Source of the DNA: Christensenella sp. UBA7571
GTDB taxonomy: Bacteria > Bacillota > Clostridia > Christensenellales > CAG-917
Reading direction: 5' to 3'
NCBI GenBank assembly: GCA_002476605.1
Contig: DLLD01000005.1
Coordinates: 702 to 64,701, forward strand
Length of the DNA: 64,000 nucleotides
Part shown: positions 3,266 to 62,799 of the stretch, in pieces
Layout: the number at the start of each line of letters is the position of its first letter
Numbering within the stretch: the stretch's first letter is position 1
Translations under genes and position numbers: made by a program
The notes under the pieces: model-generated
The model's input: only the letters and a program-made list of their open reading frames with translations
Told to the model about the DNA's origin: nothing
Database searches by the model: none

Positions 3266-3457
3266 TTACTTACAAGAACATCCACCGCCGCAAAGGCAGG
3301 AGAGAATGAGAATGAGCCATACGATGTCGCAAGAATTGCAACCGCCAAAGCTCGTTCCACCGCCGCAACCGCAACAATTGAGCAACATAATGAGCAACAC
3401 TATGTCACAAGTATTGCAACCGCAACCGTTTGCACCGTTTGAAAAGAATCCGTTCAT
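3266..3457 (-). CDS. 63-aa Cys/Gly-rich hydrophobic peptide (YjcZ-like sporulation peptide?)
   Basis: AAGGAGGT RBS lies 7 nt upstream of the ATG and the gene has its own terminator. There are 12 Cys and an internal duplication GCN(T/S)CDIV.LI..L. The overlapping + strand ORFs 3221..3442 and 3261..3482 lack an RBS. Confidence 0.6.
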
Positions 3458-17030: not shown

Positions 17031-17215
17031 GAGTGATATTGCGGCGTTGCCGCAGTGATATTCTCGCAAAGCGAGAGTGATATTTTTGGCTGTGCCAAAA
17101 GTGATATTCGCACGGTGTGCGAGTTGAGGAATATTCGATATGCGCCTTCGGCTGGATTGCCACGTCGCAACGTTCGTTACTCCTCGCAATGACAAAAGGA
17201 GAATTGGAAGATTTG
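17031..17215 (+). repeat. composite repeat A: four AGTGATATT/hairpin units + GGAATATTC cap + X hairpin module
   Basis: 9-mers start at 17032, 17054, 17076 and 17100. Hairpins are GCGGC-GTT-GCCGC, CTCGC-AAA-GCGAG, TTTGGC-TGT-GCCAAA and CGCAC-GGT-GTGCG. X module is at 17155-17193. Confidence 0.9.
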
Positions 17216-21652: not shown

Positions 21653-21827
21653 GATTCCCACGCTATCGCTCGGAATGACGAGAGGGTGGGACACCCACAC
21701 CCCGAACGGAATATTCCGCAACTCGCACGAAGTGCGAATATCACTTGCCGTTAGGCAAATATCACTCTCGCAAAGCGAGAATATCACTGCACCTATGGTG
21801 CAAATATCACTTGCGTGCTTGCACGCA
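21653..21827 (-). repeat. composite repeat B (inverted relative to A): X module, G-rich hairpin, GGAATATTCC, four AATATCACT/hairpin units
   Basis: X module is at 21653-21679 and GGAATATTCC at 21708-21717. 9-mers start at 21737, 21758, 21780 and 21803. There are five hairpins. The element ends 13 nt before the ruvA ATG. Confidence 0.9.
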
Positions 21828-21840
21828 ATAAAGGTGTAAA

Positions 21841-22425
21841 ATGTACAATTACATTCAAGGTAAAATAGTAGATAAGACGCTTTCCACGATAGTGGTGGAT
21901 AACAACGGCATCGGTTACGAAATCGGCGTGAGCGGAAATACGCTTATGGACGTCGATTTGGGTGAAATCGTCAAGATTTATACCTATCTTTACGTGAGAG
22001 AAGACGAGATGTCGCTTTACGGCTTTTCGCGCACGGACGAGAAAAGATTGTTTATGCGCCTTATCGAAATCAGCGGTATCGGTCCGAAGCTTGCAATGCA
22101 AATTCTCGGCGGTTACGACCTCAAAACGCTCACCGTGGCAATTGCAAGCGGTGACGTAAAGACGCTCACCAAAATCAAGGGACTCGGCAAAAAGACCGCG
22201 GAACTTATCGTGTTGAGCCTCCGTGAGCAAGTTGCGGACGATATAACCATATTCAACGACCACCAAGACGCACTTACGGGTGAAGACCTTGCGGACGTGG
22301 TGTTTGCGCTTGAAAGTCTCGGACTTTCCAAAACCGACGCGGTGCGTATGGCAACCGAGGCAAGCAAGAGAGTGCAAGGCACGGAAAATATTATCAGACA
22401 TTGCTTACAAAGTCTAAACAAATGA
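21841..22425 (+). CDS. ruvA: Holliday junction DNA helicase RuvA
   Basis: MYNYIQGKIVDK..., HhH motifs IEISGIGPKLA and IKGLGKKTAE. Confidence 0.92.
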   Translation: MYNYIQGKIVDKTLSTIVVDNNGIGYEIGVSGNTLMDVDLGEIVKIYTYLYVREDEMSLYGFSRTDEKRLFMRLIEISGIGPKLAMQILGGYDLKTLTVAIASGDVKTLTKIKGLGKKTAELIVLSLREQVADDITIFNDHQDALTGEDLADVVFALESLGLSKTDAVRMATEASKRVQGTENIIRHCLQSLNK

Positions 22426-22426
22426 A

Positions 22427-22634
22427 AATTAATAATTAATAATTATTAATTAATAATTGAGGGGGGGGGGACACCCGCACCCGAGCAAAAATAAATATGG
22501 AATATTCCACTTGTCATTCCGAGGGAACGAAGTGACCGTGGGAATCCAGCGTAGCGAAATGCGCCTTCGGCTTGATTGCCACGTCGCAACAATGTTGCTC
22601 CTCGCAATGACATATGGAGAAATGGAATATTCCA
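22427..22634. repeat. composite repeat C: AT-heptamer run, G10 hairpin, and a 138-bp unit bounded by ATGGAATATTCCA containing two inverted X modules
   Basis: (AATTAAT/AATTATT)n is at 22427-22458 and G10 at 22461-22470. The 13-mers are at 22497-22509 and 22622-22634. X modules are at 22513-22546 (inverted) and 22574-22611. Confidence 0.9.
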
Positions 22635-23759: not shown

Positions 23760-24812
23760 ATGCAACAAAACCAAACTATATCGACCACTCTTACGACGCA
23801 CGATTTTTATTATCATTTGCCCGAAGAGTTGATTGCTCAAACGCCTATCGACCCTCGCGATCATTCGAGATTGCTCGTCTATAACAGAGAGACGGACACG
23901 ATTGAGCATAAACATTTTTACGACTTGCCGTCCTATCTCAAAAAGGGCGACTTGCTCGTTATCAACAACACGAGAGTTATTCCCGCGCGTATTTTCGGTC
24001 ATATCGAAAATCACGAAAGCGTGCTCGAAGTCTTGCTCTTAAAACGCAAAGACTACACGCATTGGGAAACCATTATGAAACCCGCCCGCAAGGCGCGCCT
24101 CGGCTCGGTTATACATTTTTGCGACGAGTTGAGCGCGGTCGTTACGGAAGTGGGGGACTACGGCGCACGCACCATCGAGTTTAAGTTCGAGGGTGTGTTC
24201 GAGGATATTCTCGACAGAGTGGGTAATATGCCTCTTCCGCCGTATATCAAGGAAAAACTTGCCGATAAGGAAAGATATCAAACCGTATACAGCAAGATAG
24301 AAGGCTCGGCGGCTGCACCCACCGCGGGACTGCATTTTACGCCCGAACTTATGCAAAAAGTGCGCGATATTGGCGTGGATTTTGCCGAAGCGCTTTTGCA
24401 TATAGGGCTCGGAACGTTCCGTCCCGTCAAAGAGGAGAATATCCTCGACCACGAGATGCACACCGAGTATTACGAAATCGACGAGGAAAACGCCGAGAAA
24501 ATCAACTCCGCAATCAGAGAGGGAAGGCGCGTTATTTGCGTAGGCACTACGAGTGTGCGCACGCTTGAAACCGTTGCGGACGAAAACGGCTACGTAAGAG
24601 CGCAAAAAGGCGATACGAGCATATTTATCTATCCCGGGTACAAATTTAAGTGCGTAAAGGGGCTTATCACCAACTTCCACTTGCCAGAAAGCACGTTGAT
24701 TATGCTCGTGTCTGCGTTCGTCGGCAGAGAAAAGACATTGGAAATATACAAAACGGCAGTCGACGAGAAATACAGATTTTTCTCGTTTGGCGACGCGTGT
24801 TTCTTTGAGTGA
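23760..24812 (+). CDS. queA: S-adenosylmethionine:tRNA ribosyltransferase-isomerase
   Basis: DFYYHLPEELIAQTPIDPRDHSRLLV... signature. Confidence 0.95.
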   Translation: MQQNQTISTTLTTHDFYYHLPEELIAQTPIDPRDHSRLLVYNRETDTIEHKHFYDLPSYLKKGDLLVINNTRVIPARIFGHIENHESVLEVLLLKRKDYTHWETIMKPARKARLGSVIHFCDELSAVVTEVGDYGARTIEFKFEGVFEDILDRVGNMPLPPYIKEKLADKERYQTVYSKIEGSAAAPTAGLHFTPELMQKVRDIGVDFAEALLHIGLGTFRPVKEENILDHEMHTEYYEIDEENAEKINSAIREGRRVICVGTTSVRTLETVADENGYVRAQKGDTSIFIYPGYKFKCVKGLITNFHLPESTLIMLVSAFVGREKTLEIYKTAVDEKYRFFSFGDACFFE

Positions 24813-25146
24813 GCGCACTTATTAACGGTATGTGCTTATTCGAGGTGTGGAGGCGCAAGGCGCCGACCGCATCGAGCGCCAAGCTTGACGGACAGTACAA
24901 GCGACTGCGCCGTGTTGTTGCGTAGCTGGCGCACAAAGCGCAGTGGCATAATGAGGGGATTGTCCCTATTATGCGCGTGCCGAGTGTGTCCCCCTGCGGA
25001 GCAGTTCCGTGGGTTCCCTCAAGCAGAGCGCAGAGGGGGAACGGAATAGGGGAAACACCGTGAGGAAGGGGGAAAGTTGCATTTTATAGTTGGTGGGAGA
25101 AATGCCGGCGTGTCCGGAAAGAGGGGGCATTGCATTAAAGATAACG
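24813..25146 (+). repeat. R1 interspersed element, copy 1 (candidate structured RNA)
   Basis: Begins at the nucleotide after the queA stop. Nearly identical to 53142-53485, related to 62310-62569, and its 5' half is inverted at 27167-27298. Confidence 0.9.
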
Positions 25147-25181
25147 AATACTCAATTGAAAATTGATGTCAACGATAATAA

Positions 25182-26300
<1,119 letters not shown>

Positions 26301-26448: not shown

Positions 26449-26952
26449 ATGTTCGTTTCTACACTTGCGGCTTTGCCGGCTTGGTCTATGTACGTCATCA
26501 TCGGCGTTGTCTTCGTCGTAATGATCGTTCTCACGGTCGTTCCTCAAAAGAAACGTCAAAAAGAGCAACAAAATATGCTCAACAATCTTGCAGTCGGCAC
26601 GAAGCTTATGACGGTCGGCGGTATCGTCGGTAAAATCACCCAAGTGAACGCTGACAACACCCTCATCGTCAACGTCGGCACGGAAAACAATCCCACTCTC
26701 ATCGTTATCGACAAGAAAGCGGTCGGTTACGTTCTTGAAAAAGTCGACGCTCCCCAAGCTCCCGCAGCACCCGCAACGGAAGAGAAGAAGGAAGAAACCG
26801 TTGAGTGCGACAACAATTGTGACGCTTGCGACGCAAAAGCAGACTGCGACAAAGCAGAAAACTTCGAGCCCGCAACCGAAGCAACCGATTGTGACAACAA
26901 CTGCGATGCTTGCGATGCAAAAGCAGATTGCGACAAAGCTGATAAAGAATAA
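26449..26952 (+). CDS. yajC: preprotein translocase subunit YajC with a duplicated Cys-rich C-terminal extension
   Basis: One N-terminal TM segment plus the KKRQKEQQNMLNNLAVGTKLMTVGGIVGKI core. The extra tail carries two copies of CDNNCDACDAKADCDKA. Confidence 0.8.
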   Translation: MFVSTLAALPAWSMYVIIGVVFVVMIVLTVVPQKKRQKEQQNMLNNLAVGTKLMTVGGIVGKITQVNADNTLIVNVGTENNPTLIVIDKKAVGYVLEKVDAPQAPAAPATEEKKEETVECDNNCDACDAKADCDKAENFEPATEATDCDNNCDACDAKADCDKADKE

Positions 26953-27013: not shown

Positions 27014-27166
27014 AGTGATATTTGCCTACGGCAAGTGTTATTCTCGCGTAGCGAGAGTGATATTTTTTGCTTGCGCAAAAAGTGATATTGCGCCGTAGGC
27101 GCAGTTGTGGAGAATTTGTATTCGCTACGCTGGATTCCCACGGTCACTTCGTTCCCTCGTTATGCC
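27014..27166 (+). repeat. composite repeat D: four AGTGATATT/hairpin units + cap + X-like module
   Basis: 9-mers start at 27014, 27034 (variant AGTGTTATT), 27056 and 27081. Hairpins are TGCC-TAC-GGCA, CTCGC-GTA-GCGAG, TTTTGC-TTGC-GCAAAA and GCGCC-GTA-GGCGC. The X-like module is at 27133-27166. Confidence 0.9.
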
Positions 27167-27298
27167 ACTGCGCTTTGTGCGCCAGCTACGCAACAACACG
27201 GCGCAGTCGCTTGTACTAATCGTCAAGCTCGGCACTTATCTGCTCGTCGCCTTGCGACTCGAAGCTTCGAATAAACACATTCCGTTAATAAGTGCGCT
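27167..27298 (-). repeat. R1 element, inverted 5' half copy
   Basis: The reverse complement matches R1 from GCGCACTTATTAACGG through GCGCAGTGGC. It joins directly to the X-like module of repeat D. Confidence 0.85.
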
Positions 27299-27348
27299 CC
27301 GAATTGGCACATATCGTGTATAAGTAGTCTTCGATTGAGTTTTCGTTT

Positions 27349-27399
27349 AGGTGTGGGCAAAGCCCACCCGCAATTATTAATTATTAATTATTAATTATT
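27349..27399 (-). repeat. G-rich hairpin + (AATTATT)x4 tandem heptamer at the 3' end of the membrane-protein gene
   Basis: GTGGGC-AAA-GCCCAC is at 27353-27367 and the heptamers at 27372-27399. The same module pair follows the ruvA stop at 22427-22485. Confidence 0.8.
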
Positions 27400-27799
27400 A
27401 GTTTTTCCTCTCACTTTTTCTGCCTTTTATATTTACGGTGATTATTCCGCTGATTGCGCCGGCAAGGGGGAGGGTGATGAGGTCTATCCAGCTAAATTTG
27501 ACGTCTTTGAAACCGTTGAGGGCGGAGAAAATCAAAAACGTGAGAAGCATATAGACAAGGCCACAAATCGCGCCTTTGAGCAAGCCGTTTTGCGCTTGCT
27601 TGAAGCCTATGAGCACTCCGACTAATACCGATACGATTTTGATTGCGATATTGACGGGCATAATGACTTTGTTTTCCACTGACGCAAAGCGTATGATAAC
27701 GGCAAAAATCAGCACCAAGCCGAGAGAGATAAGGGTTGCAAACAATACTGCTTTGAGGACGTCAACGACGTCGTTTTTGATGAGTTTTGCTTTTTCCAT
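27398..27799 (-). CDS. small 4-TM membrane protein (YrzE/TIGR04086-like?)
   Basis: 133 aa, four hydrophobic segments, positioned next to secDF. Family name is from memory only. Confidence 0.55.
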   Translation of the reverse strand: MEKAKLIKNDVVDVLKAVLFATLISLGLVLIFAVIIRFASVENKVIMPVNIAIKIVSVLVGVLIGFKQAQNGLLKGAICGLVYMLLTFLIFSALNGFKDVKFSWIDLITLPLAGAISGIITVNIKGRKSERKN

Positions 27800-40266: not shown

Positions 40267-40393
40267 GGAATATTCCACAACTCGCACGAAGTGCGAATAT
40301 CACTGTGACAAAGTCACAATATCACTTTTTGCGTAAGCAAAAAATATCACTTGCCAAAGGCAAATATCACTGCGCCTACGGCGCGATATCACT
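40267..40393 (-). repeat. composite repeat E: GGAATATTCC cap + five AATATCACT/hairpin units
   Basis: Cap is at 40267-40276. 9-mers start at 40296, 40318, 40343, 40363 and 40385 (variant GATATCACT). Hairpins are CGCAC-GAA-GTGCG, GTGAC-AAA-GTCAC, TTTTGC-GTAA-GCAAAA, TGCC-AAA-GGCA and GCGCC-TAC-GGCGC. Confidence 0.9.
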
Positions 40394-40411
40394 TTTGATA
40401 TGTAGGAATAT

Positions 40412-52983: not shown

Positions 52984-53097
52984 CTCTCAAATAGCGAATA
53001 ACTTTGTTAGCACCCATCCGCTACAAAATCACGTACGCTCGTGTACGTTGGGTTTTGTATCGGGTGGGTGCTTTCGCGTTCTTCATCTATTTGAGAG
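52984..53097 (+). repeat. H-family long hairpin, copy 3 (2 nt after efp stop)
   Basis: CTCTCAAATAG/CTATTTGAGAG and AGCACCCATCCG/CGGGTGGGTGCT stems (one G-U), apical ACGTAC-GCTCGT-GTACGT, and the conserved internal loop. Confidence 0.85.
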
Positions 53098-53141
53098 CGT
53101 TATATTTTTTAAGCGCATCAAACAGCGATATACTGTGTCAA

Positions 53142-53485
53142 GCGTACTTATTAACGGAATGTGCTTATTTGTAGCGTGGAGGCGCAAGGCGCCGACCGTA
53201 TCGAGCGCCAAGCTTGACGGACAGTACAAGCGACTGCGCCGTGTTGTTGCGTAGCTGGCGCACAAAGCGCAGTGGCATAATGAGGGAATTGTCCCTATCT
53301 ATGCGCGTGCCGAGTGTGTCCCCCCCCGCGGAGCAGTTCCGTGGGGTCCCTCAAGCAGAGCGCAGAGGGGGAACGGAATAGGGGAAACACCGTGAGGAAG
53401 GGGGAAAGTTGCATTTTATAGTTGGCGGGAGAATTGCCAGCGTGTCCGGAAAGAGGGAGTTATTGTATTAGGGGGAGTTACGACG
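53142..53485 (+). repeat. R1 interspersed element, copy 2
   Basis: Collinear with copy 1, differing by about a dozen substitutions/indels by eye. The 3' end (GTTATTGTATTAGGGGGAGTTACGACG) matches copy 3 instead. Confidence 0.9.
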
Positions 53486-53488
53486 AAA

Positions 53489-53517
53489 ACATATTTGTTC
53501 TGTTGTTTATACTTATT
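53489..53517 (+). promoter_or_regulatory. weak candidate sigmaE-type promoter for spoIIIA operon
   Basis: ACATATT, 13 nt spacer, ATACTTAT; a partial match to the remembered sigmaE consensus (kmATATT / CATACAnT). Confidence 0.25.
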
Positions 53518-61870: not shown

Positions 61871-61945
61871 GCGGGAGTGACTCAGTGGTAGAGTGTCACC
61901 TTGCCAAGGTGAAAGTCGCGGGTCCGAATCCCGTCTCCCGCTCCA
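61871..61945 (+). tRNA. tRNA-Gly (GCC), CCA encoded, unusual T-loop
   Basis: Hand-folded cloverleaf: acceptor GCGGGAG/CTCCCGC, anticodon loop TTGCCAA, T arm GCGGG-TCCGAAT-CCCGT (C instead of U at position 55). Confidence 0.8.
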
Positions 61946-62003
61946 AACGATAGTGCAGTGAAAAGAATTGAAGACGAAAACTTGAAAATGATGAAAATCA
62001 TAT

Positions 62004-62114
62004 AGACGGGATTCGGCTTCACGGAGTGAAGAGTGCAGTATGCACAGACCCGCGCGGGTTCGTTCCGCAAGGTCGCCATCGAAGATGGCTACACCGTCTC
62101 CCGCTCCAAACGAT
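62004..62114. pseudogene. scrambled tRNA-Gly 3'-half fragments (one inverted, one direct)
   Basis: AGACGGGATTCGG (62004-62016) is the reverse complement of tRNA nt 61924-61936. CCGTCTCCCGCTCCAAACGAT (62094-62114) duplicates 61931-61951. Confidence 0.7.
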
Positions 62115-62215: not shown

Positions 62216-62248
62216 AAAAACAAGCGACGGTATTGTCGCTTGTTTTTA
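62216..62248 (+). terminator. terminator after tRNA-Cys
   Basis: ACAAGCGAC-GGTATT-GTCGCTTGT followed by T5. Confidence 0.8.
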
Positions 62249-62249
62249 T

Positions 62250-62277
62250 TTACAAACTCAAAGCCTTGTGCTACAAT
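62250..62277 (+). promoter_or_regulatory. candidate promoter reading into R1 copy 3
   Basis: TTACAA, 16 nt spacer, TGC-TACAAT (extended -10). Confidence 0.4.
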
Positions 62278-62309
62278 AATTTTCGCTAAATGCGTAGTAA
62301 ACTTCTTTC

Positions 62310-62569
62310 GGAGAAGGAGCTTCGAGTCGCAAGGCGACGAGCGGTGGAGCGCCGAACTTGACGGATAGTACAAGTGAGCCAACGAGCGTTGTTCTTTTCG
62401 TTGGCGAACGAGTGGCATAATAAGAGGACGATACTCTTCTATGTGAGTGCCGATTGTCTCCCCCGCGAGCGATGTTCACTCTTGTAGAGAAATGCCCCTA
62501 ACCGAGTGGTGGGAGAAATGCCGGCGTGTCCGGAAAGAGGGGGTTATTCTATTTAGAGGAGTTACGACG
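62310..62569 (+). repeat. R1 interspersed element, copy 3 (diverged, shorter)
   Basis: Collinear with copies 1 and 2 but with many substitutions and a ~50-nt internal deletion. The 36-nt core at 62508-62543 is identical to 25092-25127. Confidence 0.85.
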
Positions 62570-62611
62570 CACATTAGTTGATGCGAAATTGAAATAATTA
62601 TTAAAATTTTT

Positions 62612-62636
62612 GCCGGAATGGCGGAATAGGCAGACG
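62612..62636 (+). pseudogene. duplicated 5' fragment of tRNA-Leu
   Basis: The 25 nt GCCGGAATGGCGGAATAGGCAGACG are identical to the first 25 nt of tRNA-Leu at 62713. Confidence 0.8.
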
Positions 62637-62712: not shown

Positions 62713-62799
62713 GCCGGAATGGCGGAATAGGCAGACGCAAGGGACTTAAAATCCCTCGATGGAAACATCGTATCGGTTCGACCCCGATTTTCGGCACCA
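62713..62799 (+). tRNA. tRNA-Leu (UAA), CCA encoded
   Basis: Acceptor GCCGGAA/TTTCGGC, anticodon loop CTTAAAA, long variable arm CGATGGAAACATCGT, T arm ATCGG-TTCGACC-CCGAT. Confidence 0.9.

Follow-up and report, generated by a model that had tools for sequence, protein, structure and literature searches.

What occupies the gap between queA and tgt in the 64-kb stretch of DNA analysed here (the window), and is it an RNA gene, a regulator of its neighbours or a repeat? The original prediction described the occupant, R1, as a candidate structured RNA present in several copies and named transposon-associated guide RNAs and ROOL/GOLLD-type RNAs as possible kin. The first part of this proposal stands: R1 does recur in multiple copies, and covariation supports a conserved fold. 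The second part, a guide-RNA or ROOL/GOLLD-type RNA gene, is not supported. We instead consider it probable, on balance, that R1 is a modular, structured, interspersed intergenic repeat family of the bcr/ERIC/BIME-like kind, which is co-transcribed and whose fold is under selection, and not a dedicated RNA gene.

Copies of R1 in the window and in related genomes

Four copies of R1 were recovered in the window, with their extents set by nhmmer using a profile built from the three plus-strand copies (Table 1). Further copies had been predicted at 53142–53485 and 62310–62569, along with an inverted 5′ half at 27167–27298; blastn and nhmmer confirmed all of these with slightly adjusted coordinates. 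Likewise, the start of copy 1, which had been placed right after the queA stop codon, shifts only to the final base of that codon (queA ORF 23760–24812). The start codon of tgt at 25197 lies 37 nt past the end of copy 1, which occupies the intercistronic gap between the two genes. Copy 1 (24812–25137) and copy 2 (53141–53470) share 93.9% identity over 330 nt (blastn E 2.5e-142), and the 5′ half of copy 1 (24811–24957) matches the opposite strand at 27299–27154 with 87% identity over 147 nt (E 3e-46). Copy 3 is more diverged, with 70% identity between 24850–24994 and 62324–62464 (E 7e-10), and shares a perfectly identical stretch of 37 nt with copy 1 (25091–25127 versus 62507–62543, 100%, E 1e-13). 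The parts of the copy 4 leader occur in an order that also heads R1 arrays in other genomes. Separately, a long hairpin element was noted at 52986–53105, between efp and copy 2.

Table 1. Coordinates of the R1 copies in the window and of the structural parts of copy 1
Feature	Position	Strand	Description
R1 copy 1	24812-25160	+	Found by blastn and nhmmer; row 1 of alignment A2
R1 copy 2	53141-53494	+	Found by blastn and nhmmer; between efp and spoIIIAA, co-oriented with both
R1 copy 3	62301-62580	+	Found by blastn and nhmmer; type-C 3′ domain, degenerate 5′ module; between tRNA-Cys and tRNA-Leu
R1 copy 4	27298-27150	-	5′ half only (model positions 1-150), joined to a different module
Copy 4 leader	27299-27405	-	(TAATAATT)n, then a GC hairpin, then two degenerate 5′-module repeats
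5′ module, GCGCACTTATTAACGGTATGTGCTTATTCGAGG...	24812-24848	+	Sequence conserved; degenerate tandem repeats upstream of copies in other genomes
P2 hairpin	24849-24867	+	G/C pair, tandem G.A/A.G, 5-bp stem, AAG loop; 100% of cells paired
Central domain	24873-24984	+	Closed by P9; encloses P3, P4 and P5
P9 long-range helix	24876/24981, 24878/24980, 24879/24979	+	Adjoins the second tandem G.A/A.G
P3	24883-24902	+	Inside the P9-closed junction
P4 variable hairpin	24903-24945	+	Inside the P9-closed junction
P5	24946-24974	+	Inside the P9-closed junction
Type-A 3′ domain	24984-25059	+	P6 (GUGU..CCCC with GGGG..ACAC; coordinates good to about 1 nt, the row being misaligned by one column) encloses hairpin P7 and long hairpin P8
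Purine-rich tail, GUGAGGAAGGGGGAAA	25060-25075	+	Shine-Dalgarno-like; unpaired in the curated fold
Type-C module fragment, 37 nt	25091-25127	+	3′ strand of the type-C closing helix, GCCGG-CGUGU-CCGG hairpin, purine tail; identical to 62507-62543

The plus strand is purine-rich, as had been noted, with 34% G and 25% A next to 21% C. The claim that no reading frame is conserved among the copies was borne out and fits the 1-nt indels that separate them. A small ORF starting from a UUG after the purine tail was rejected, its frame being broken by such indels.

R1 lies outside the known RNA classes, as had been suspected. A cmscan of the whole window against Rfam 15 at the gathering threshold returned three tRNAs and two Gut-1 motifs, none of them over R1, and scans of copies 1 and 3 at E<=10 gave only noise. 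Among 18 further loci bearing R1 copies, no Rfam family was found to overlap R1. Specifically, the Rfam models for HEARO (RF02033), ROOL, GOLLD, OLE and raiA did not match R1 in the window, in the 18 loci or, at E<=10, in copies 1 and 3, and no riboswitch or T-box matched it in the window scan or in the E<=10 scan of a copy. Searches of phage, plasmid and IMG/VR collections returned no R1 match, and a literature search found no earlier description. The R1 family is previously uncatalogued and absent from Rfam 15.

An exact-pattern scan with two conserved R1 boxes, run on one genome per species, returned at least 109 further R1 loci in about 24 assemblies, all of them from uncultured gut Clostridia among the matches listed. 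Within these loci nhmmer delineated at least 151 copies. The elements are about 270–350 nt long, and the sampled blocks of one genome assembly alone hold at least 27 of them; matches are often located at contig ends. The carriers, among the matches listed, are related human-gut Clostridia, such as Christensenella sp. UBA6880, Firmicutes bacterium CAG:475 and CAG:238. In those R1-bearing assemblies that were also covered by the tgt scan, Tgt is 95–99% identical to the protein from the window, which indicates that the R1 family belongs to one closely related group. In more distant relatives, with Tgt below about 93% identity, the 6 kb examined contained no R1. Of 101 copies, 47 have their nearest relative within the same genome.

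Fold and modular architecture

The fold of R1 was derived from 32 non-redundant type-A copies (alignment A2) using RNAalifold, with refinement by hand and an all-against-all column covariance scan. The curated structure comprises 10 helices and 48 pairs, and 94.1% of its cells in A2 are paired, compared to 37.5–52.1% when the 3′ partners are slid by 1–3 columns. Changes on both sides are seen in 14 pairs versus 1–5 for slid partners. The covariation score is 0.156 versus at most 0.046 for slid partners, and 0 of 500 shuffles reach 0.156, these controls being shuffles and partner slides that are not tree-aware. The type-A 3′ domain, aligned separately over 39 distinct sequences (A4), is 95% paired versus 46–61% when slid, with 7 pairs changed on both sides. 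In both A2 and A4, three rows (both window copies and the L081 copy) are shifted by one column at P6, so that the counts come out slightly too low.

The hairpin GGCGC-AAG-GCGCC with flanking tandem G.A/A.G mismatches, which had been picked out from the sequence, is helix P2, and two of its pairs show compensatory changes from C-G to G-C. A second predicted hairpin, GCATA...TATGC, exists as P5, and the option of long-range pairing between a C-run and a G-run is realized as P6, where C-G is replaced by U-A in 7–14 sequences. In P9, the pair 72–183 is A-U in 15, G-C in 15 and G-U in 2 sequences, and the pair 75–181 is C-G in 26 and U-A in 5. P8 features three adjacent pairs that switch together, as well as two invariant U.G pairs. 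Both tandem G.A motifs are conserved. The fold ends in the unpaired purine tail GUGAGGAAGGGGGAA, which in other copies is also found as a stand-alone terminal module.

The invariant U.G pairs and tandem G.A motifs would be mismatches on the opposite strand, and G.U cells outnumber A.C cells (85 versus 27). Thus, the fold belongs to the plus strand, either as RNA or as single-stranded DNA. The asymmetry is modest without the two invariant U.G pairs, the counts falling to about 25 versus about 12 once these and one doubtful pair are removed. Minimum-free-energy z-scores (-2.3 for the plus and -3.1 for the minus strand) do not separate the strands.

Several other structural readings were considered and discarded. 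A helix between the 5′ module and the segment following P5, present in the single-sequence minimum-free-energy fold, is mismatched in most copies, and the pair 72–183 covaries instead. A CCCACG/CGUGGG helix in the 3′ domain is unconserved in other subfamilies. A K-turn reading of P2 was dropped, since P2 lacks the 3-nt bulge and its outer pair shows Watson–Crick covariation.

At least three forms of the 3′ domain are interchangeable, namely A (copies 1 and 2), B and C (copy 3). In type B, a closing helix of 11 bp is combined with an inner hairpin that covaries and with a GCCC-GAA-GGG hairpin; 95% of its cells are paired versus 50–58% when slid. For this domain, a CUUGCG/CGCAAG stem was rejected, one of its strands varying without compensation, and the extended closing helix was adopted. 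Copy 1 combines the 5′ module, the central domain, a type-A 3′ domain and an orphan type-C module: in both copy 1 and copy 2 the type-C fragment follows a type-A domain that is itself complete, and its own 5′ pairing partner is missing. In the relative L081, the copy upstream of tgt has a 36-nt deletion at the position of this fragment, as seen directly in the sequence. The fragment corresponds to a 36-nt block that the original prediction had singled out as identical in copies 1 and 3 despite divergence elsewhere. The identity is real (37 nt, 100%), but the block is a shared type-C 3′ module, orphaned in copies 1 and 2, and no independently conserved core. Its identity between copies 1 and 3 is best read as a sign of recent module exchange.

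Modularity is not confined to the 3′ domain. In one subfamily, the P4 hairpin is swapped whole for an unrelated hairpin. Optional hairpins are found at fixed peripheral sites, including insertions of about 150 nt in the P3 loop (L110 and L119). An optional insert of about 45 nt lies between P9 and P6, and extra modules may stand ahead of the 3′ strand of P6. R1 copies also occur in tandem, truncated and chimaeric forms, and they are often preceded by degenerate 5′-module repeats, by an AT-rich (TAATAATT)n tract with a hairpin module, or by Gut-1 arrays.

Genomic setting and turnover between relatives

R1 is almost always situated 3′ of the end of a gene, mostly in the sense orientation. The statistics behind this pattern rest on gene calls from a codon-model caller and on terminator calls, both simple heuristics of our own. 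The gene on the 5′ side of R1 is on the same strand in 93 cases versus 43, and of 97 fully flanked copies only 3 lie in a divergent-promoter gap, compared to 30 in convergent gaps. In tandem gene contexts, 41 copies are sense and 23 antisense. Terminator-like sites within 250 nt were found on the 3′ side of 18 (sense) and 26 (antisense) of 91 copies, compared to 5 and 6 on the 5′ side, which makes such hairpins about four times commoner on the 3′ side. All four window copies follow a co-oriented gene or tRNA, namely queA, efp, tRNA-Cys and a DUF3792 gene (27398–27799, minus strand). Copy 3 is placed just 3′ of a promoter-like site, TTTACA-17-TACAAT with TG (62249–62277), and 5′ of tRNA-Leu. 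No conserved promoter or terminator was found as part of R1. A candidate promoter inside the 5′ module was rejected, its -35/-10 arrangement being inconsistent. The bases that precede the left boundary of R1 vary, and among them we found no fixed target of 4–5 nt.

The window itself is a housekeeping region, with the genes ruvCAB-queA-tgt-yajC-secDF-recJ-relA ... recA-rny-efp-spoIIIA. Its 57 ORFs, compared against Pfam, are mostly housekeeping, about 12 being without a family and none belonging to a mobile element. This agrees with the earlier statement that IscB, TnpB and RT genes are missing from the window, and extends it to transposases and integrases. Elsewhere, the 148 R1-flanking ORFs shorter than 450 aa gave 151 Pfam families, none with more than three members among those listed, and contained no nuclease or transposase by Pfam. 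The 51 longer flanking ORFs, compared by all-versus-all clustering only, showed no recurrent family. No IscB, TnpB, RT or integrase gene recurs beside the R1 copies covered by these two comparisons. All-versus-all clustering of 1051 ORFs from the at least 109 loci returned an ABC-ATPase cluster alone.

The queA–tgt gap, compared across species whose QueA proteins are 82–98% identical, shows a rapid turnover of its content. R1 is present on the plus strand in the window, L114 and L122, whereas L110 and L135, the two closest relatives, carry it on the minus strand. In L111, L118 and L121 the gap is taken up by unrelated elements, and in L113, L115–L117 and L119 it measures only 20–150 nt and contains no R1. 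When two species carry R1 at the same locus, the copies are 52–83% identical in nearly all pairs, compared to 80–94% for the flanks. Identities of up to 94–97% are found between copies at unrelated loci, many of them in different species.

Of a simple MITE with terminal inverted repeats and target duplications, R1 has the behaviour of an interspersed repeat but not the end signatures. In copies 1–3, the first 45 nt match the reverse complement of the last 45 nt no better than shuffles do, and no direct repeats flank the window copies. Neither flank-pair searches nor pairwise alignments of close relatives uncovered clean filled and empty sites, the intergenic content being replaced wholesale. 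The boundaries of homology between R1 copies are ragged.

Interpretation and comparison with known systems

In its distribution, R1 resembles repeats that move or recombine more than it does a gene dedicated to a regulatory or guide RNA. The searches turned up neither a mobilising enzyme nor an insertion junction or a clean empty site, so the word mobile describes distribution only. The 3′-end and sense bias, together with the terminators on the 3′ side, suggest that R1 is probably co-transcribed with its flanking genes. In the window, this would take place inside the queA–tgt operon, after efp and in the leader of the tRNA-Leu transcript. Selection would act on the folded RNA, or on the corresponding single strand of DNA, and the family may have spread when copies recombined ectopically or underwent gene conversion, or by means of an enzyme encoded elsewhere. 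An effect on the host, if any, would be that of a structured 3′-UTR or intercistronic element; R1 could block exonucleases or offer a processing site, as REP, ERIC and Correia elements have been shown to do. A role as a CsrA sponge was also considered and rejected, as GGA triplets are about as frequent as the base composition predicts (by hand count and estimate).

Two features of R1 pull in another direction. First, 10 helices, two tandem-G.A motifs and expansion sites go far beyond the hairpins of known REP elements and MITEs, and look more like a functional large RNA. Second, the identity of 94–97% at unrelated loci in different species exceeds that of neighbouring genes and could reflect strong purifying selection instead of recent spread. 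Because the fold is so elaborate and is better conserved than the neighbouring genes, a large trans-acting RNA remains a rival. Under this alternative, the copies would be the genes or processed products of a guide or scaffold for an effector encoded elsewhere, much as stand-alone omega RNAs serve IscB/IsrB, or of an architectural RNA of the ROOL/GOLLD/OLE type, with individual copies supplying variable modules. The complex, covariation-supported fold with its tandem G.A motifs and peripheral expansion sites, the high between-species conservation at non-orthologous loci, the variable 3′ modules and the promoter-like site directly upstream of copy 3 would all suit such an RNA. We nevertheless regard it as unlikely, given that no candidate effector is seen in the window or beside any of the approximately 150 copies and that 23 of the 64 copies in tandem contexts are antisense to the surrounding genes. 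Truncated, chimaeric and tandem copies and the lack of a conserved promoter or terminator within R1 also speak against it, as does the failure of the HEARO, ROOL, GOLLD, OLE and raiA models to match even at E<=10. For the specific kinship first proposed, with HEARO/omega guide RNAs or ROOL/GOLLD, there is thus neither a covariance-model match, nor an IscB, TnpB, RT or integrase neighbour, nor a match in phage, plasmid or viral collections. It is similarly rather doubtful that R1 is a functional large RNA that serves as a scaffold or guide in trans for an enzyme that also propagates it, or that spreads via an RNA intermediate. If it were, the interchangeable 3′ domains and optional hairpins would be specificity modules, and R1 would be in the position of HEARO before IscB was understood, except that an ORF lay next to HEARO and none accompanies R1.

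A different use of the same fold would be as single-stranded DNA. Enzymes of the HUH/Y1 and IS110 types move elements that lack terminal inverted repeats and target duplications. R1 lacks both and its fold is specific to one strand, and the mild co-orientation with genes could mirror a replication-strand bias; the fold might then be a structure recognized by a trans-encoded HUH/Y1 transposase (IS200/IS605- or RAYT-like) or an IS110-type recombinase. There is a precedent in the REP/REPIN–RAYT system, in which hairpin repeats are mobilised in trans (PMC3184786). This explanation appears improbable to us, as no HUH/Y1 or IS110-type gene is found in the window or beside any copy, and the ends of known single-stranded DNA transposons are short subterminal hairpins and not an element-wide fold of 10 helices. 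Further, the left boundary has no conserved target tetra- or pentanucleotide, and the homology boundaries between copies are ragged. The traits of TnpB reRNAs and IS200/IS605 elements are likewise missing, with no adjacent tnpB or tnpA among the R1-flanking ORFs and no fixed target at the left boundaries; an enzyme acting in trans from another part of the genome is still conceivable.

Finally, a cis-regulatory leader (riboswitch, T-box or attenuator-like) of tgt and other downstream genes, suggested by the placement of copy 1 37 nt upstream of tgt and by R1 upstream of tgt in L114, L122 and L081, is highly improbable and, as a regulator of tgt, is contradicted by the orientation and presence/absence data: R1 is inverted in the closest relatives L110 and L135 and absent in L113, L115–L117 and L119, in only 51 of 112 cases does the gene that follows R1 share its orientation, the functions of the genes that follow are unrelated, and no terminator or sequestered ribosome-binding site lies at a fixed distance.

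Should the reading of R1 as a structured interspersed repeat family be correct, it would be an unusually elaborate addition to the structured intergenic repeats of bacteria and would account for the breaks at R1 sites in assemblies of this gut group. It would also serve as a warning to annotators that a covariation-supported fold of about 300 nt is not necessarily an RNA gene or riboswitch. At the same time, so complex a fold, conserved more strongly than the genes around it, would be compatible with a real function at the RNA level.

Among known systems, the HEARO/IscB omega RNA (RF02033) resembles R1 in being large (about 300 nt), multi-copy and complex in fold, and it first came to attention as a repeat-like element, at a time when its role had yet to be established. 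HEARO immediately precedes an HNH/IscB ORF, whereas no ORF is associated with R1, which occurs in both orientations relative to its neighbours. No copy was found immediately 5′ of an IscB/IsrB (RuvC/HNH) ORF among the 148 flanking ORFs compared to Pfam, the 51 compared by clustering and the window ORFs, and the HEARO covariance model does not match R1 either at the gathering threshold or, for copies 1 and 3, at E<=10.

The Gut-1 motif (RF01706) shares with R1 the same uncultured gut genomes, multiple copies and an intergenic location. Two Gut-1 motifs in the window (21733–21812 and 40314–40394) score above the Rfam threshold, and in several genomes, e.g., at L027, Gut-1 lies directly upstream of R1 in the same orientation. 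The two are distinct elements: a Gut-1 array spans 77 nt, consists of four GUGAUAU-plus-hairpin units and has no sequence or structure in common with R1, the Gut-1 model does not match R1, and the two never overlap in the window or the 18 loci. Of 19 Gut-1-like matches, 11 are not near an R1. R1 helps to place this orphan motif, as the two belong to the same mosaic system of intergenic elements, confined to one uncultured lineage.

In its features, R1 most closely resembles the intergenic repeats of other bacteria. The bcr1 element of the Bacillus cereus group is transcribed, and compensatory changes preserve its RNA fold, although its positions are not conserved from strain to strain; bcr1, ERIC and REP/BIME are co-transcribed and found at 3′ ends or between convergent genes, and repeats of the bcr, ERIC, Correia and REP/BIME kind can alter mRNA stability or processing (PMC3184786). 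Like R1, the bcr1–bcr18 elements (bcr1 about 155 bp, bcr5 310 bp) are intergenic repeats of 100–400 bp in a Firmicutes lineage, with unfixed positions. They differ in that bcr1 has 5-bp terminal direct repeats and a simple two-stem cruciform, whereas R1 lacks a target duplication, folds into two domains with about 10 helices and carries interchangeable 3′ domains as well as optional insertions. REP/BIME, ERIC and Correia elements likewise share with R1 a mosaic of modules, a preference for 3′ ends and convergent gaps, occurrence in both orientations and a strong depletion from divergent promoter regions. However, REP units are hairpins of about 35 nt, and ERIC and Correia elements are MITEs of 100–160 nt with terminal inverted repeats; R1, at 270–350 nt, has no such repeats, its fold is asymmetric and not palindromic, and no RAYT-like gene was seen. 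R1 shows the marks of an interspersed structured repeat, with many dispersed intergenic copies, an unconserved position and a fold maintained by compensatory changes. Given that its fold is larger and asymmetric, that its 3′ domains are interchangeable and that it has no MITE end signature, we place it with the repeats of the bcr/ERIC/REP-BIME kind, as a family outside every named one.

Gut-1 arrays and the R1 repeat

In other genomes, R1, the interspersed structured repeat of about 330 nt, often has a Gut-1 RNA motif (RF01706), an array of four units each made up of GUGAUAU and a short hairpin, immediately 5' to it on the same strand; for example, in locus L027 from a related uncultured gut Clostridia genome, Gut-1 at 1488-1568 is followed by R1 at 1621. 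Gut-1 and R1 therefore seem to belong to a single mosaic system of intergenic elements. Further, the R1 arrays of several other genomes are headed by a module, present twice in the window, in which an AT-rich (TAATAATT)n run precedes a GC hairpin. The long imperfect hairpin element beside R1 copy 2 belongs to a family with at least 12 other loci in related genomes, where its members frequently adjoin R1 in either orientation. The window also features two internal tandem duplications in coding DNA.

Features in the window
Feature	Position	Strand	Remarks
Gut-1	21733-21812	-	Rfam match
Gut-1	40314-40394	-	Rfam match
Gut-1, weaker copy	17032-17111	+	
Gut-1, weaker copy	27014-27090	+	
AT-rich run and GC hairpin	27340-27405; 22425-22467		GUGGGC-UUU-GCCCAC
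Long imperfect hairpin element	52986-53105		Separates R1 copy 2 from the stop codon of efp
Tandem duplication	26791-26945		Cys/Asp-rich repeat, C-terminus of YajC-domain ORF (26449-26952)
Tandem duplication	3281-3423		Inside small minus-strand ORF (3269-3457)
Terminator-like hairpin	62221-62255		3' of tRNA-Cys; CAAGCGAC-GGUAUU-GUCGCUUG and U run
Strong promoter-like site	62249-62277		TTTACA-17-TACAAT with TG

The queA-tgt gap in relatives

Two related loci (L111, 2012-2110; L121, 2343-2440) hold in this gap a nearly palindromic element of about 95 nt, GCGCCGAAUGCUAAACACGUGUCAC...GACACAUAUUUAGGCGCAA, different from R1, which fills the gap in the window. In a third (L118), an A-rich, repetitive filler of about 480 nt occupies the position taken by R1 in the window.

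The tRNA cluster around R1 copy 3

The terminator-like hairpin after tRNA-Cys, absent from the list of the terminator scan and noticed by direct inspection of the sequence, is directly followed by the promoter-like site; the tRNA-Leu transcript would then carry R1 copy 3 in its leader. The cluster also contains partly duplicated tRNA ends: the final 15 nt of tRNA-Gly with 6 nt of trailer are repeated 163 nt downstream (61931-61951 and 62094-62114), flanking a stretch of about 140 nt, and the initial 25 nt of tRNA-Leu are repeated 101 nt upstream of the gene (62612-62636 and 62713-62737). Insertions or recombination within the cluster may have left these duplications behind as scars.
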